DNA of 53,640 nt from a virus (taxonomy: Duplodnaviria; Caudoviricetes). The notes under the pieces are model-generated. The model saw only the letters and a program-made list of their open reading frames with translations, did not search any database and was not told the DNA's origin. The stretch's first letter is position 1; each line of letters begins with the position of its first letter. A program made the position numbers and the translations under genes. Below are positions 128 through 32,704 of this stretch, one piece after another. The stretch is taken from IMG/VR virus record IMGVR_UViG_3300022751_000002, positions 1 to 53,640 of that record; one strand, 5' to 3'.

Positions 128-678
128 CAACAAAAACAGTTTATTCCGATGGTAAAGCAGTTATTTCTACCGTTTACAAAGACGCGAAAGATTTAGCTCC
201 TAAAATTAGCCAGGGCATAAATGAAATAGCAAAAGGCTTAAAGATTGGTGCGGAATCCGTTTGGCATATTTTGGTTAAGCAGCAATTAGTTTGGTCAATT
301 TGCTTTCTAATCCTTACAATTGCTTCTATATTTAATTGGTGTATGTTTTACAAAAGGCATTTAACATCGAAACTTACTGAAGAAAATTTTGTAAAAGGTT
401 TTGAAGATATAATTGGAGAGGTTGAAAATCCAAATTATGATAGATACGGTCATAGTTCTAGGCTAGAAAAATATATTAATGGTCCGATTGGAAAAAGAGA
501 AATATTGATGCCTATTGAAAATAAAAATAATGGTTGGTTTGGAAGATTTCATTTTGCAGTTTGTGTTTTACTTTCAGCATTCAGCGCATACCATTTTGGT
601 GATATGCTAACAGGTTTTTTAAATCCGGAATACGGCGCAATGAAAGATATTTTATTTGTTGCTTTAAAATTAAAATAA
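1..678 (+). CDS. Membrane protein with signal peptide (226 aa), starts at ATG 53511 across the origin
   Basis: Frame open from ATG 53511 (MKKIITIAILLIITFASAQ) through ORF 271..678; two hydrophobic segments. Confidence 0.8.
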   Translation, partial: KKIITIAILLIITFASAQKTSKKEIEQIIKDQSDGVYNNTASATKTVYSDGKAVISTVYKDAKDLAPKISQGINEIAKGLKIGAESVWHILVKQQLVWSICFLILTIASIFNWCMFYKRHLTSKLTEENFVKGFEDIIGEVENPNYDRYGHSSRLEKYINGPIGKREILMPIENKNNGWFGRFHFAVCVLLSAFSAYHFGDMLTGFLNPEYGAMKDILFVALKLK

Positions 679-2397: not shown

Positions 2398-2559
2398 TCA
2401 GTCAAGCGACATAACAACAAAATAGAAATCATGAAATAGCAAATAAAAACCCAGTAATTAAACCATTTTAAAAATAATTAATCAATGCACTTTTTCTTAG
2501 GTTTTAAACTGATAGCTTAATTACAAAACCTCATGCGAAGTATAGTAACATGATTCAAT

Positions 2560-2592
2560 AAAAAACCTCAGCAATAACGTTGAGGTTTTTTT
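2560..2592 (+). terminator. Intrinsic terminator
   Basis: aaaaaacctcagc/gttgaggtttttt + T tract. Confidence 0.8.
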
Positions 2593-2636
2593 ATTTCCAA
2601 AAATGAACGTTTTGTCTCCAAAAACAACCAAAAATT

Positions 2637-2711: not shown

Positions 2712-3002
2712 ATGGAAACGAATCAGTATCAAAAAATTGTAGCAAAAGAACTTAACGCTATTTGGTTTTACTATACTAAACAGCAAAAACTAAATCATAT
2801 AAAGCACTTGTTAACCAATTGCAAAAAATATATTGTTCATGAAGTAAATAAGCTTATTGTTTTTAATTGGAAAGATTACTGCCAAGTGATAAATACAGAA
2901 AGCAATACTTTAAAATATTTTGATTCGGAAGAAGAAGCGTTAAATTATTGTCTTGATGCTTTTAAAAATAGTGAATCATCCAAACAAGAAAAATTATTCT
3001 AA
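2712..3002 (+). CDS. Hypothetical protein
   Basis: ORF coupled to next gene (TAATG). Confidence 0.65.
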   Translation: METNQYQKIVAKELNAIWFYYTKQQKLNHIKHLLTNCKKYIVHEVNKLIVFNWKDYCQVINTESNTLKYFDSEEEALNYCLDAFKNSESSKQEKLF

Positions 3003-11048: not shown

Positions 11049-11056
11049 TATATTTG
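11049..11056 (+). promoter_or_regulatory. -7 promoter element for RNA genes
   Basis: TATATTTG 10 nt upstream of the tRNA-like RNA. Confidence 0.65.
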
Positions 11057-11065
11057 AATAAGTTT

Positions 11066-11190
11066 AATCATGTTGATCATAACGCAGCTTGTGGATAGAT
11101 CTGAAAGCAGAAATGCAAAGTCGAGGCGATAAAATAGCTGCATAATGCCGAGGTAATGGCGTAATGAAGGTTCAAGTCCTTCCATGGTTA
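11066..11190 (+). ncRNA. tRNA-like RNA (acceptor stem + T arm, expanded core)
   Basis: aatcatg/catggtt; gaagg-ttcaagt-ccttc; gcagct/agctgc helix. Confidence 0.65.
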
Positions 11191-11197
11191 AACAAAT

Positions 11198-11270
11198 GCA
11201 TTGGTAGTTTAATGGTAAAACAGCAGTCTCCAAAACTGTATTTAGAGGTTCGAATCCTTTCCTTTGTGCA
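11198..11270 (+). tRNA. trnW: tRNA-Trp(CCA), imperfect acceptor stem
   Basis: gcagt-ctccaaa-actgt; agagg-ttcgaat-ccttt. Confidence 0.7.
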
Positions 11271-30252: not shown

Positions 30253-30765
30253 ATGGATTCAATTACGATAGAAAGAATAAAAGAATTTCACCCAAAATTC
30301 AGGGATTTGCTTTTGAAGCAATATATTGAAGCAAACAATTTACTTGGTAAAGGCGCTAGATTACGATTTGCGTATGTTTATCGTTCAAATGCTTTACAGG
30401 ATAAATTATATAACCAAAAGCCAAAAGTAACCAATGCTAAAGGCGGCCAATCAATTCACAATTATGCGATGGCTTTCGATATCGTATTGCTTTATGATAA
30501 TGATGGCGATGGAAAATTTGAAGAAGCTTCATGGTCAATGATCCGTGATTTTGATAAAGATGGTAAAGCAGATTGGAAAGAAATTGTTAATTACTTTAAA
30601 TCTAAAAGTTGGGAGCATGGCGGCGATTGGAAAAGCTTTAAAGATCAACCTCATTTTCAATTAAAAAAACCTGATGGATCATCTTATAAATGGCAGGAAT
30701 TAAAAGCCTTGGTTGATTCCGGAAAATTTATTTTAGAGAATGGTATTAAATACCCTAAGATATAA
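30253..30765 (+). CDS. Endolysin, peptidase M15C (L-Ala-D-Glu)
   Basis: YRS..Q..LY, GGQSIHNYAMAFD, GGDW..DQPHFQ. Confidence 0.92.
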   Translation: MDSITIERIKEFHPKFRDLLLKQYIEANNLLGKGARLRFAYVYRSNALQDKLYNQKPKVTNAKGGQSIHNYAMAFDIVLLYDNDGDGKFEEASWSMIRDFDKDGKADWKEIVNYFKSKSWEHGGDWKSFKDQPHFQLKKPDGSSYKWQELKALVDSGKFILENGIKYPKI

Positions 30766-30857: not shown

Positions 30858-31529
30858 ATGATACAAATTAATCCAAGATCACCCGCCTTTATTCAATTAT
30901 TAAAATATTCTATAGTAGCAATTATATCTATTTTGATATTCAGTTGGGTAAAAAGTTGCAGTTCCGGACCTGTAAAACCTAAAACGCAAACTGTAATTGT
31001 ACCGGCAAAATCAGGATCATTCGAACCTAAAAAACCGGATTCAAAGCCTTTGGTAGTTAAAGAAAATCTCAAAAATGAGATTAAAAAAGATGGTACTGTT
31101 TACATTCCGAATCCATTAAATGAAAAGTTGCTGCAGGAAAACGAACAATTAAAATTAGATTACTCAAAAATGAGTGATTCGTTAAAATCCAAAACATATG
31201 AAAAGGCTATTGAGCTAAATACATTTTCATCCAGGTTTGAAGATAAATTTATGGTCTTAAATATTAACGGAACTGTTCGCGGCGAAGTTCAGGAAATCAC
31301 ACCTTCATATACTAGAAAAGAATTTGAAATCGAATTAAAACAAAAAGAAAGCGTTTTTAGGCTTTTAGCGGGCGCAGAAATTGGAAGTAGTATAATCACG
31401 CCTAAATTGAATTTTAAAGCAAATTTGATGTTTCAGAATAGAAAAGGCGATATAATTAGTACTTCTTACGATACAAATAAAAATGTTTGGATAGGTTATA
31501 ATAAATCAGTCTTTAATATTAAAAGATAA
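30858..31529 (+). CDS. Spanin-like membrane-anchored protein
   Basis: N-terminal TM ending KSC, coiled coil, C-terminal beta strands; follows endolysin. Confidence 0.55.
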   Translation: MIQINPRSPAFIQLLKYSIVAIISILIFSWVKSCSSGPVKPKTQTVIVPAKSGSFEPKKPDSKPLVVKENLKNEIKKDGTVYIPNPLNEKLLQENEQLKLDYSKMSDSLKSKTYEKAIELNTFSSRFEDKFMVLNINGTVRGEVQEITPSYTRKEFEIELKQKESVFRLLAGAEIGSSIITPKLNFKANLMFQNRKGDIISTSYDTNKNVWIGYNKSVFNIKR

Positions 31530-31555
31530 GTTAGGAATTAATAAATATTATTTTA

Positions 31556-31563
31556 TATATTTG
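31556..31563 (+). promoter_or_regulatory. -7 element of the tRNA operon
   Basis: TATATTTG 4 nt before the leader ATG. Confidence 0.75.
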
Positions 31564-31567
31564 CCAT

Positions 31568-31639
31568 ATGAAAACGATAAAAAATAACACTGAACGCCTT
31601 CCGCAACATAATTTAATTATGGGTGGAACTTCTGTGTAA
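31568..31639 (+). CDS. Attenuator leader peptide MKTIKNNTERLPQHNLIMGGTSV
   Basis: ERLPQH codons match the six downstream tRNAs; overlaps alternative hairpins. Confidence 0.85.
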   Translation: MKTIKNNTERLPQHNLIMGGTSV

Positions 31640-31664
31640 ATATATTTTTGACAATATTTATCTT

Positions 31665-31690
31665 AAACCACCTTTAATCGGGTGGTTTTT
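31665..31690 (+). terminator. Attenuator terminator
   Basis: aaaccacc/ggtggttt + T tract; 5' strand can alternatively pair with gggtgg 31621-31626. Confidence 0.85.
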
Positions 31691-31693
31691 GCA

Positions 31694-31767
31694 TTTCTAG
31701 TAGCGAAGTTAGGTTTCATGTCTCCCTTGGAAGGAGGAGTACTCAGGTTCGAATCCTGACTATTAGA
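31694..31767 (+). tRNA. trnP: tRNA-Pro(TGG), atypical acceptor/D stems
   Basis: tctcc-cttggaa-ggagg; tcagg-ttcgaat-cctga. Confidence 0.7.
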
Positions 31768-31772
31768 CAAAT

Positions 31773-31844
31773 GTTCCGTTCGACACGTGGTTAAGTCATT
31801 ACCCTTTCAAGGTAAAGTCACGGGTTCGAATCCCGTACGGAATA
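31773..31844 (+). tRNA. trnE: tRNA-Glu(TTC)
   Basis: Full cloverleaf; ttacc-ctttcaa-ggtaa. Confidence 0.93.
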
Positions 31845-31849
31845 CAAAT

Positions 31850-31921
31850 TGATTTATAATGTAACGGTTAGCATACGAAACTTTGACTTTCGCTGTTTAG
31901 GTTCGAATCCTAATAAATCAA
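31850..31921 (+). tRNA. trnQ: tRNA-Gln(TTG)
   Basis: Full cloverleaf; cgaaa-ctttgac-tttcg. Confidence 0.92.
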
Positions 31922-31926
31922 CAAAT

Positions 31927-31999
31927 GGTGTTTTTGGACTAACGGTTAAGTCGTTTGCCTGTGAAGCAAAAAACGTGAGTTCGATTCTCACATTACACC
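31927..31999 (+). tRNA. trnH: tRNA-His(GTG) with G-1 and two acceptor mismatches
   Basis: tttgc-ctgtgaa-gcaaa; gtgag-ttcgatt-ctcac. Confidence 0.82.
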
Positions 32000-32005
32000 C
32001 AAAAT

Positions 32006-32086
32006 GCGACTGTGGCTTTATTGAGAATGGCACATCTTGGCGGTTTAGACCCGTTAGCTTTGAAGGTTCAAGTCCTTTCAGTCGTA
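32006..32086 (+). tRNA. trnL: tRNA-Leu(TAG), atypical (no long variable arm, expanded D region)
   Basis: gcgactg/cagtcgt; ggcgg-tttagac-ccgtt. Confidence 0.7.
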
Positions 32087-32095
32087 CAAATACTT

Positions 32096-32167
32096 TTCAG
32101 TATAGTTTAACGGATAAAATTTGCGGTTACGACCCGTGCGATGGGAGTTCGAATCTCTCTACTGAAA
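32096..32167 (+). tRNA. trnR: tRNA-Arg(ACG)
   Basis: ttcagta/tactgaa; gcgg-ttacgac-ccgt. Confidence 0.88.
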
Positions 32168-32174
32168 CATTTTT

Positions 32175-32205
32175 AAACCCAATCTATTAATTTAGGTTGG
32201 GTTTT
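32175..32205 (+). terminator. Terminator ending the tRNA array
   Basis: aaacccaatcta/taggttgggttt. Confidence 0.8.
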
Positions 32206-32207
32206 CT

Positions 32208-32280
32208 ATTTATAATCATTATAAATTATGTTTATTTATTTTTTCTTTGTATTTTTTATACAAATGTTTTATTACATTTG
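32208..32280 (+). promoter_or_regulatory. Early promoter cassette (19-bp box, operator, -7)
   Basis: ATTTATAATCATTATAAAT; TGTATTTTTTATACA 32248; TACATTTG 32273. Confidence 0.75.
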
Positions 32281-32308
32281 TCAAATAAAACAATTAAAAT
32301 TATAGATC

Positions 32309-32704
32309 ATGAAAGGTATTGTTAAAGAATTCAATATAACAGGGAGTAATGAAATTGATATTGATTTTGCTGTTAAGAAATGGGACAATCGATTTTCTAT
32401 TTTAGGTTATAATTATGGTAATGGACAAATAAAATACACGTTATACATTAATCGAAAAAACTCAAACAGAACTAATTTTAAAACCGAGATATTTAAAACG
32501 CAAGCATTAGATTTGATCAAAAGATTAGATTTGATTTGTATTCAAAGTTCAACTTTTAGGAGTGGAACAGCTTACATGACTAAAGAACTTGCGGAAATAG
32601 AATATAATAGAATTAGTGAATTATACGAAGAAACACTTTTTAAATTAAATCACTTAGCAGGAATAAAACAATCATTAAACCCAATAACTTATGGCACAAA
32701 TTAA
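32309..32704 (+). CDS. Hypothetical early protein
   Basis: First ORF after promoter. Confidence 0.7.
   Translation: MKGIVKEFNITGSNEIDIDFAVKKWDNRFSILGYNYGNGQIKYTLYINRKNSNRTNFKTEIFKTQALDLIKRLDLICIQSSTFRSGTAYMTKELAEIEYNRISELYEETLFKLNHLAGIKQSLNPITYGTN

Follow-up and report, generated by a model that had tools for sequence, protein, structure and literature searches.

In enterobacteria, the trp, his, leu, and pheA operons are controlled by attenuators that consist of a translated leader open reading frame (ORF) with clustered codons, the alternative pairings 1:2, 2:3, and 3:4, and a terminator before the first gene. Multivalent attenuators precede ilvGMEDA and ilvBN (Leu/Val/Ile codons) and thr (Thr/Ile codons) and sense the end products of a shared pathway. 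T-boxes bind tRNA without a ribosome by means of Stem I, a specifier loop, and the T-box sequence, and control aminoacyl-tRNA synthetase and amino-acid genes. Phages have been proposed to carry tRNA genes in order to compensate for codon usage, to replace tRNAs after host shut-off, or to escape defences that cleave tRNAs. Here, we analyze the region that heads a six-gene tRNA array in the virus record IMGVR_UViG_3300022751_000002 (Caudoviricetes). The window, i.e., the whole stretch of DNA analyzed, is this complete record of 53,640 bp with direct terminal repeats and 31.6% G+C. The array is preceded by a 23-codon ORF, in which six consecutive codons correspond to the six tRNAs, and by an intrinsic terminator. 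Our current hypothesis, which we consider probable from sequence comparison, is that this region is a ribosome-mediated leader-peptide attenuator that puts the phage tRNA operon under the decoding capacity for its own codons.

A full-text literature search, which left most subscription journals and supplements outside its scope, returned no description of a leader peptide or attenuator before a phage tRNA array. In mycobacteria, leaderless polycysteine short ORFs are Cys-responsive attenuators, according to the accessible part of the report (bioRxiv 10.1101/834739). As described there, they resemble the window leader in being leaderless short ORFs with consecutive sensor codons at the head of an operon, and differ in that they respond to a single amino acid, precede protein-coding operons, and occur in another phylum. 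In flavobacteria, the available sections of one study report leader-peptide attenuation as likely before amino-acid operons (PMC9723704). Phage tRNA arrays are described, in the available text of a study of the PARIS effector AriB, as compensating for host tRNA loss or cleavage (PMC12409363); that text deals with the function of the tRNAs, whereas the element described here would regulate the tRNA genes.

The window element is similar to the trp, his, leu, and pheA attenuators in its short leader ORF, clustered codons, three mutually exclusive pairings, an intrinsic terminator ahead of the first controlled gene, and a stop codon placed such that a ribosome terminating there would cover region 2 of the RNA. 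Unlike these, it would control tRNAs instead of enzymes, such that the sensed quantity is the product itself (a direct feedback); its sensor run has one codon for each of six tRNAs rather than one codon repeated; its mRNA is predicted to be leaderless; and it lies on a mobile phage cassette. With the ilv and thr leaders it shares codons for several amino acids, any of which could stall a ribosome (OR-gate logic), but its codons are set by which anticodons the downstream tRNAs carry, and they track isoacceptors. Like a T-box, it would be a cis-acting terminator/antiterminator switch that reads tRNA status by codon-anticodon recognition; in contrast, Stem I, the specifier loop, and the T-box sequence were not detected with Rfam. 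A cmscan analysis of positions 31000-32700 at E <= 1 returned the six tRNAs and three weak, unrelated chance matches, and a T-box riboswitch was rejected on this basis. None of the curated Rfam amino-acid leaders (His, Leu, Thr, Trp, and Phe) matched the same region.

Architecture of the leader and the tRNA array

The observation made in the window was confirmed. The initial annotation, which was made from the sequence alone, had claimed a promoter box, a 23-codon ORF, a terminator, and six tRNA genes, and all were found at the claimed positions by inspection of the sequence and by ORF, terminator, and ARAGORN calls (Table 1). The structural features that characterize leader-peptide attenuators are present: a short ORF with a usable start codon, since the ATG lies at the predicted +1 and the frame is conserved in eight homologs; a cluster of regulatory codons; an intrinsic terminator between the ORF and the first controlled gene (9/9 leaders); and mutually exclusive protector, antiterminator, and terminator pairings, which were obtained in constrained folds of 9/9 leaders with a modest single-sequence significance.

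Table 1 Features of the leader and tRNA array in the window
Feature	Position	Strand	Basis or remark
Weak -33-like element TTAG (homologs TTTG)	31531..31534	+	21 nt 5' of -7 box
Accessory cassette (promoter, leader, terminator, six tRNAs, terminator, most of a 131-aa ORF)	31533..32661	+	BLAST breakpoints
Bacteroidota sigma-A type -7 box TATATTTG	31556..31563	+	4 nt before ATG
Leader ORF, 23 codons + TAA, MKTIKNNTERLPQHNLIMGGTSV	31568..31639	+	frame kept in 8 homologs
Sensor run GAA CGC CTT CCG CAA CAT (codons 9-14)	31592..31609	+	one codon per array tRNA
Region 1, UUCCGC + CAUAAU, 5' arms of protector hairpin	31599..31612	+	minimum free energy folds; overlaps sensor codons 11-15
Region 2, AAUUAUGGGUGGAA	31615..31628	+	partner either region 1 or terminator 5' arm + loop
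Small AU hairpin UAAAUAU/AUAUUUA	31637..31661	+	constrained folds; nested in antiterminator
Intrinsic terminator AAACCACCU-UUAAUC-GGGUGGUUU then UU	31665..31690	+	9-bp stem 31665-31688, T-run to 31690
tRNA-Pro (tgg)	31694..31768	+	ARAGORN; Rfam 34.5 bits
tRNA-Glu (ttc)	31773..31845	+	ARAGORN; Rfam
tRNA-Gln (ttg)	31850..31922	+	ARAGORN; Rfam
tRNA-His (gtg)	31928..32000	+	ARAGORN; Rfam
tRNA-Leu (tag)	32012..32087	+	ARAGORN; Rfam 28.8 bits, slightly below cut-off
tRNA-Arg (acg)	32096..32168	+	ARAGORN; Rfam
Operon-closing terminator	32175..32204	+	12-bp stem + T-run

The sensor run stands out from the rest of the phage sequence. Among the 107,246 six-codon windows in the six frames of the whole window, 23 are all-cognate to the array and just one, at 31592, has six codons for six different tRNAs, if the UAG anticodon is assumed to read the whole CUN box. 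The earlier claim of one codon for each tRNA box is borne out by a unique match, with the proviso that CTT needs four-way wobble. With random windows drawn from long ORFs of the same phage as the reference, the p value is 5.6e-4 for six consecutive cognate codons within 22 and 0.005 for a tRNA coverage of 6/6. Apart from tRNA-Glu, the array is one decoder per CNN box (Leu-CUN, Pro, His, Gln, and Arg-CGN), all with G36. Since the array decodes all five CNN boxes, "cognate" is, GAA aside, equivalent to "first base C". The tRNA genes were called by ARAGORN and scored with Rfam (cut-off 29 bits), and the six scores range from 28.8 to 61.9 bits.

The predicted transcription start falls on the first base of this ORF. 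In Flavobacterium psychrophilum, the sigma-A box TAnnTTTG is located at -12 to -5 and 5.5% of mRNAs are leaderless, as given in the available part of the study (PMC9723704). A box at this position in the window would place +1 at 31568, the A of the ATG, and thus predicts a leaderless mRNA. The spacing between box and ATG is exactly 4 nt in 9/9 leaders of the window's own family (family A) and in 16/16 leaders of an unrelated family (family B), as expected where a 5'-terminal AUG is required. A weak -33-like element is located further upstream; the -33 consensus of Bacteroidetes promoters is TTTG. At the other end of the leader, only 3 nt separate the terminator from tRNA-Pro, which is too short for a promoter, and any transcription of the tRNAs therefore has to pass the terminator.

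Alternative RNA pairings and proposed mechanism

Comparison of the leaders by folding establishes a consistent set of alternative pairings. The minimum free energy (MFE) fold of the window leader recovered both protector pairings of the initial annotation, UUCCGC/GUGGAA and CAUAAU/AUUAUG, along with the terminator (-28.3 kcal/mol, z = -2.8, 0/200 shuffles as good). A stalled ribosome was modeled by masking the RNA to 12 nt past the A-site codon (codon 9 or 14) and by truncating the nascent RNA within the terminator loop. Under this mask of the sensor codons, GGGUGG, together with its flank, binds CCACCU and the loop of the terminator, which gives the antiterminator pairing AUUA.UGGGUGG (31616-31626) with CCACCU.UAAU (31668-31678). 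The same behavior was found throughout family A. The full-length MFE structure is the 1:2 protector hairpin plus terminator in 9/9 leaders, and in 9/9 masked leaders the partner of region 2 is the 5' arm of the terminator with its loop (-9.7 to -23.6 kcal/mol). The antiterminator is the MFE structure of L136, L153, L031, and L143 even with the entire terminator present. Hence, the 1:2, 2:3, 3:4 logic that had been proposed for the window is reproduced in all nine leaders, including the divergent leader of Cellulophaga phage phi19:1.

The phi19:1 leader provides support from covariation. Its terminator arms (AAGCUCUCUA/UAGGGGGCUU) are unrelated to those of the other leaders, and its region 2 (GGGGAG) is changed to match. 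The duplex energy of the phi19:1 region 2 on its own terminator arm is -11.5, compared to -3.2 to -5.4 for the CCAC-type region 2 of other leaders on the phi19:1 arm and -7.5 to -8.7 for the phi19:1 region 2 on the arms of the other leaders. Per-sequence folds and duplex energies were used for this analysis; MAFFT placed the phi19:1 terminator arm in an insertion, with the unequal stems out of register.

The stop codon is positioned in a way that fits the proposed switch. Region 2 sits 9-24 nt 5' of the stop codon and, given the general footprint of a terminating ribosome, such a ribosome would cover region 2. Read-through by a ribosome that melts the terminator was rejected, since the stop codon lies 25 nt before the stem.

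We infer the following sequence of events, from transcription start and translation to stalling, read-through, and the physiological trigger. Transcription would begin at the ATG (31568) or within 1-2 bases of it and yield a leaderless mRNA, and a ribosome would translate the 23-codon leader as RNA polymerase heads toward the terminator (31665-31690). If codons 9-14 (Glu, Arg-CGH, Leu-CUN, Pro, Gln, and His) are decoded promptly, the ribosome would reach the stop codon and cover region 2; if there is no translation, region 2 would remain paired to region 1. In both cases the terminator would form and transcription would end 3 nt short of tRNA-Pro. A shortage of any one of the cognate charged tRNAs would instead stall the ribosome on the sensor run and open the 1:2 hairpin, and the freed region 2 could capture the 5' arm and loop of the terminator (31668-31679) ahead of synthesis of the 3' arm. 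The polymerase would then read through and the six tRNAs would be made. Restored tRNAs would restore termination, i.e., negative feedback; since the output relieves the stall, the loop would be self-limiting. Candidate triggers are a poor supply of CNN decoders in an AT-rich host, host shut-off, and tRNA-cleaving defences, the last of which had been suggested in the initial annotation.

Conservation and covariation within family A

Family A consists of the window leader and eight homologous leaders, which were collected by pattern scans of viral and metagenome contigs (Table 2). Phage phi19:1 (Assiduviridae) is the sole named relative at the locus and matches part of the tRNA array. The leader ORF, its frame (with one 3-nt indel), and the stop position are conserved across the eight homologs, and at positions 9-14 of all nine leaders every residue is an amino acid of the array. 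GAA is found in the three leaders whose array has a tRNA-Glu gene (the window, L145, and, in decayed form, L159) and is replaced by CAA or CAG in 6/6 leaders without tRNA-Glu, for an overall consistency of 9/9. The Arg codons are CGC (three times), CGT (twice), and CGA (once), and never CGG or AGR; the three that are used are those readable by the ACG (ICG) anticodon. In the eight window-type leaders, the variable columns at codon positions 1, 2, and 3 number 3, 9, and 10 of 23 each, and the C-terminal half of the peptide is wholly different between phi19:1 and the other leaders. Since position 1 is near-fixed and positions 2 and 3 are equally variable, it is the codon class and the frame, not the peptide, that appear to be conserved.

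Table 2 Leaders and the tRNA arrays that they precede
Family or locus	Leader or sensor run	Array	p value
Family A, window	MKTIKNNTERLPQHNLIMGGTSV	Pro Glu Gln His Leu Arg	
Family A, L145	ERLPQH	Pro Glu Gln His Leu Arg (Leu gene missed by ARAGORN, 38.9 bits in Rfam)	
Family A, L159	ERLPQH	array decayed	
Family A, L136 and L153	QRLPQH	Pro Gln His Leu Arg	
Family A, L031, L138, and L143	QHLPQP	Pro Gln His Leu Arg	
Family A, phi19:1	HIQRLPQP; leader MNNNTIHIQRLPQP...	Pro Gln His Leu Arg	
Family B	MKTMNTNTNLDTPTTPNGD[A/G]GT...	Pro Asn (162-aa gene, no terminator) Asp Gly Thr (Ala)	run, <= 3e-6
Family C (L145, other strand)	MLSINTINMIARVGDNFPSKRFMV	Ala Ile Gly Asp Thr Val Arg(tct) Met Asn Met ... Phe	run, 0.007
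Family D	MRTTLL[H/N]TLLLDRQGLLRRLM. (TTA x5, CTN x3, AGA x4)	Leu(taa) Arg(tct) Leu(tag)	run, <= 3e-6
Family E (L023, sigma-70-type promoter)	MNTFQQHQHQ... (CAA CAA CAC CAG CAC CAG)	Gln(ctg) Gln(ttg) His(gtg)	run, <= 3e-6
Family H (L008, third leader)	MKTTIKHMVFSTQQKSICWYERMHDCGSDTDVG	Glu Val Phe Lys Cys Trp Tyr Met Gln Arg(acg) His Ser	coverage 12/12, 0.005; run, 0.12

The leader and array are also gained or lost together. The cassette is missing from the two closest complete genomes, L046 and L047, in which the flanks are 92-95% identical to the window and the BLAST breakpoints fall at 31532 and 32662; the cassette is an insertion or a deletion relative to these genomes. The two closest complete genomes have no tRNA gene (G002) or one that is sited elsewhere (G001). 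In the array-bearing contigs L159, L145, L136, and L153, homology to the window starts at 31536-31542, at the promoter. This shared breakpoint and the joint gain or loss show that leader and array travel as one unit.

Most pattern matches in the searches for family A were due to chance. The leader pattern matched 24 loci, of which five were real and 19 were chance matches in GC-rich coding DNA. The 3'-anchor pattern matched eight loci in viral contigs (five already known and three chance) and 27 in metagenome contigs (24 chance and three real, namely L153, L159, and L169, the last of which duplicates L138). The 3'-anchor match L158 was rejected, as it is the C-terminus of a bacterial protein beside a host tRNA-Gln. 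A tRNA-Gln T-arm pattern matched 43 loci, with the array type only in L018 (phi19:1 itself), L020 (cut off), and L031. A pattern scan of genome contigs gave no real leader among the matches listed (at least 120 loci), and an nhmmer search of 80 endolysin-derived loci with the leader profile found no leader, the only match being a weak one to the terminator part in L052 (E = 0.024).

In the arrays of family A without tRNA-Glu, a spacer of 57 nt (L136, L153, and phi19:1) or 97 nt (L143) takes its place between tRNA-Pro and tRNA-Gln. The L143 spacer holds a T-arm-like remnant, and such arrays turn over quickly.

Unrelated leader families before other phage tRNA arrays

The leader profile of family A also weakly matched the region 5' of a tRNA-Pro that heads long arrays in unrelated, larger phage contigs. 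Because of these matches, a systematic scan of array heads was undertaken, which covered 148 phage array heads and 292 ORF tests from the loci collected in this analysis. For each ORF, the tRNAs in the 1.3 kb that follow defined the cognate codons, and the longest run of these was compared to random windows of the same locus. The scan identified 24/148 heads at p <= 0.001, family A included, where ~0.3 would be expected among 292 tests; L038, L122, and L024, which had low p values, were set aside as candidates. As a control, two Flavobacteriales genomes were scanned at 24 heads of tRNA operons (28 ORF tests), and nothing comparable was found (minimum p = 0.047). For the families in Table 2, the run p values were refined with 300,000 samples. 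As examples, NTNTNLDTPTTPNGDAGT precedes Pro-Asn-Asp-Gly-Thr-Ala and TTLLNTLLLDRQGLLRRL precedes Leu-Arg-Leu. The initial annotation had suggested comparing leader codons with array anticodons in related phages; they do co-vary, by the 9/9 Glu/Gln consistency of family A and by the match of at least four further, unrelated leader/array pairs, which supports the interpretation given in that annotation.

A more complex case is L008, in which three leaders (2186, 5051, and 7465; reverse-complement coordinates, minus strand) head three sub-operons with 21 tRNAs in total. Each leader matches its own sub-operon (20/31, 12/21, and 21/32 vs backgrounds of 0.33, 0.11, and 0.49), and the off-diagonal matches are 0-9. 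The L008-type leader was not found in any named phage. Further large contigs with at least 20 tRNAs (L027, L029, L042, L044, and L332-L342) have three leader ORFs with hairpins, of families B, D, and H, and the codons of its own sub-operon are abundant in each leader.

In family B, the position-20 Ala/Gly codon tracks the presence of tRNA-Ala in 11 of the 13 loci whose sequence extends far enough downstream. The last codons of the family-B ORF contain the region (AGUUCAG) that can pair with the terminator arm, and the antiterminator is the MFE structure without translation.

The 75.7-kb contig L145 contains two convergent tRNA operons, 230-480 (+) and 2476-2604 (-), and each leader matches its own array. 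The second leader (INTINMIARVGDNF) is unrelated to the ERLPQH type and has an A-rich 5' untranslated region instead of a leaderless start. In L145, the region at 2476-2546 (-) gave sub-threshold matches to Phe_leader (31.2 bits vs a cut-off of 55) and to the rnk leader, in the terminator part of the leader, both of which probably reflect just a hairpin and U-run.

In the less AT-rich contig L023, the leader MNTFQQHQHQTGTKSA is located at ~2815-2960 (+) behind a TTGACA-16-TATAGT promoter and may represent the same idea in a phage of a non-Bacteroidota host. A longer leader is found in L005 (6520-6660, -) and L010, where a 46-codon ORF with all 20 amino acids, followed by a hairpin and U-run, heads an array of >20 tRNAs; the coverage of 20/21 anticodons in L005 (p = 0.06) is suggestive only. 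Another L005 ORF, 'MGYSV..GSNP', was rejected as a leader, since it is a translated tRNA. In the 362-kb contig L034, the ORF MKNISIHMNWINSMRRNSRIETVRVCLNG, rich in Ile, His, Asn, Trp, and Arg, is followed by a strong terminator and precedes His Trp Trp ... His Ile Asn Asn Arg Arg; 2/4 of its Arg codons (CGT) are non-cognate.

Evaluation of the attenuator hypothesis

Several observations weigh against the attenuator hypothesis. The feature is far from universal: 124/148 scanned heads are without a match, and no matching leader was found for the array of the crAss-like phage DAC15 or for the window's own lone tRNA-Trp (11198-11269). The statistics from the window alone are moderate (p ~5e-4 to 5e-3) and concern a site picked post hoc from 53 kb, and under the strict rule that U reads A or G, the match of Leu-UAG to CTT is lost, which reduces the match to 5/6 and the count of all-six windows to 0. 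The window antiterminator (-9.7 to -11.6) is less stable than the terminator-containing folds (-15 to -16), which means that the switch in the window would have to be kinetic, and the single-sequence 2:3 pairing beats just 92-99.7% of shuffles (p 0.003-0.076). Within family A, L031, L138, and L143 have no Arg codon in the run despite tRNA-Arg in their array, and the final codons of several leaders are not cognate. In family B, two of the 13 loci (L338 and L044) have the Ala codon without tRNA-Ala. The covariations themselves (Glu/Gln with tRNA-Glu and Ala/Gly with tRNA-Ala) may each represent one or two evolutionary events, and such events are few and not phylogenetically independent.

A further exception is L159. 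The initial annotation had named homologs that keep ERLPQH with a different tRNA set as evidence against its proposal, and L159 is such a case: it keeps ERLPQH, and just tRNA-Pro and a chimeric pseudo-tRNA remain before the terminator. The pseudo-tRNA (2586-2650, -; 21.6 bits over model positions 10-63) is like tRNA-Glu (anticodon TTC) in its 5' part and like tRNA-Leu at its 3' end, which suggests that a deletion joined the T-arms of two genes of the array and thereby removed Gln, His, and Arg. However, the deletion looks recent, since L159 is 92.7% identical to the window over 300 nt.

One alternative is that the attenuator is real and reports amino-acid supply or general translation stress, in which case a starvation signal would simply have the tRNA operon among its outputs. 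In favor of this, any cause of a shortage of charged tRNA makes a ribosome stall, and the attenuators of amino-acid operons are built in the same way. However, the codons follow isoacceptors. Within the single genome L008, the leader that precedes Arg(tct) has AGA as its Arg codon and the one that precedes Arg(acg) has CGT; in L023, where the array has Gln(ttg) and Gln(ctg), CAA and CAG both occur in the leader; and the window leader uses CGC and CTT although the phage prefers AGA (44% of Arg) and TTA (50% of Leu). In addition, tRNA synthesis is no remedy for amino-acid starvation. This isoacceptor-specific choice favors sensing of tRNA species over sensing of amino acids, and we regard the starvation signal as unlikely.

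It is also conceivable that leader translation matters and the output differs, with ribosomes modulating Rho loading, RNase access, or 5' processing of the tRNA precursor. This would accommodate the L023 hairpin before the tRNAs, which is without a clear U-tract, the additional stem-loop between terminator and tRNA in family D, and the weak window antiterminator. On the other hand, the window and its eight homologs have canonical hairpin and U-run terminators that adjoin the first tRNA, and region 2 is complementary to the terminator 5' arm and covaries with it in phi19:1. A different output is, in our view, quite unlikely.

We consider it very unlikely that the arrangement is coincidental, i.e., that an irrelevant or untranslated ORF lies by a terminator that leaks or a hairpin for processing, and that constitutive read-through or an internal promoter supplies the tRNAs. 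The moderate, post hoc statistics of the window would allow this, and a sigma-70-like pair with an 18-nt spacer, TTGACA (31649-31654) and TTTAAT (31673-31678), is present within the leader. Yet just 2/9 leaders have TTGACA, namely those of the window and of the closely similar L159, and promoters of the host are of the TAnnTTTG type; the pair was rejected as the operon promoter for lack of conservation. Coincidence is further at odds with the matches in at least four other unrelated leader/array families, where the scan would yield ~0.3 by chance, with the empty host control, and with the joint transfer of leader and array.

Finally, a functional micro-protein, suggested by the conservation of the ORF in nine contigs, or a T-box-like specifier array that pairs with tRNA anticodons free of the ribosome, as T-box RNAs do sense tRNAs, is extremely improbable, since the peptide is poorly conserved, with codon position 2 varying like position 3 and differing C-terminal halves, T-box models had no match, and the leader is much shorter than a Stem I platform requires.

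A putative class of tRNA-operon attenuators

Beyond the window, we lean slightly toward the view that these leaders form an undescribed and widespread class, in which each phage tRNA operon or sub-operon is headed by its own attenuator with codons for its own isoacceptors. L023, with its sigma-70-type promoter, hints that the class extends beyond Bacteroidota phages. If the class is real, the tRNA supply of these phages would be demand-driven, autoregulated, and modular, as in the genome where three leaders partition 21 tRNAs, and the leader peptides would reveal operon boundaries and the decoders that a phage expects to lose in its host.

For the window, the attenuator hypothesis would imply that the need for phage tRNAs is conditional and that unneeded tRNA synthesis is costly. 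The sensor codons would read out which decoders matter, here those of all five CNN boxes and GAA. Leader-peptide attenuation would thereby extend from enzyme operons to tRNA genes, with a sensed molecule that is also the product and with specificity at the level of isoacceptors. Such leaders could be used as compact, natural, multi-input tRNA sensors and as a rule by which the operons and small ORFs of phage tRNA arrays could be annotated. Phage phi19:1 on Cellulophaga baltica offers a cultured system with a family member.

Genomic surroundings

Upstream of the tRNA locus are genes for an endolysin (30253-30762) and for a 223-aa protein; downstream are a 131-aa gene without a family and a gene for an SbcC-like nuclease. 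The 131-aa ORF (32309-32704) belongs to no known family, lies mostly inside the cassette, and carries its own TACATTTG box. In the DNA contigs of four sequencing runs, variants of the module are present, with no change listed within 31592-31609.

In the region 11049-11269, the lone tRNA-Trp has on its upstream side a TATATTTG box and a 20-codon ORF (MLIITQLVDRSESRNAKSRR), without a Trp codon and without an intervening terminator. A T-arm-like fragment, ggttcaagtcc, at ~11168-11185 beside this tRNA suggests a decayed neighboring tRNA.

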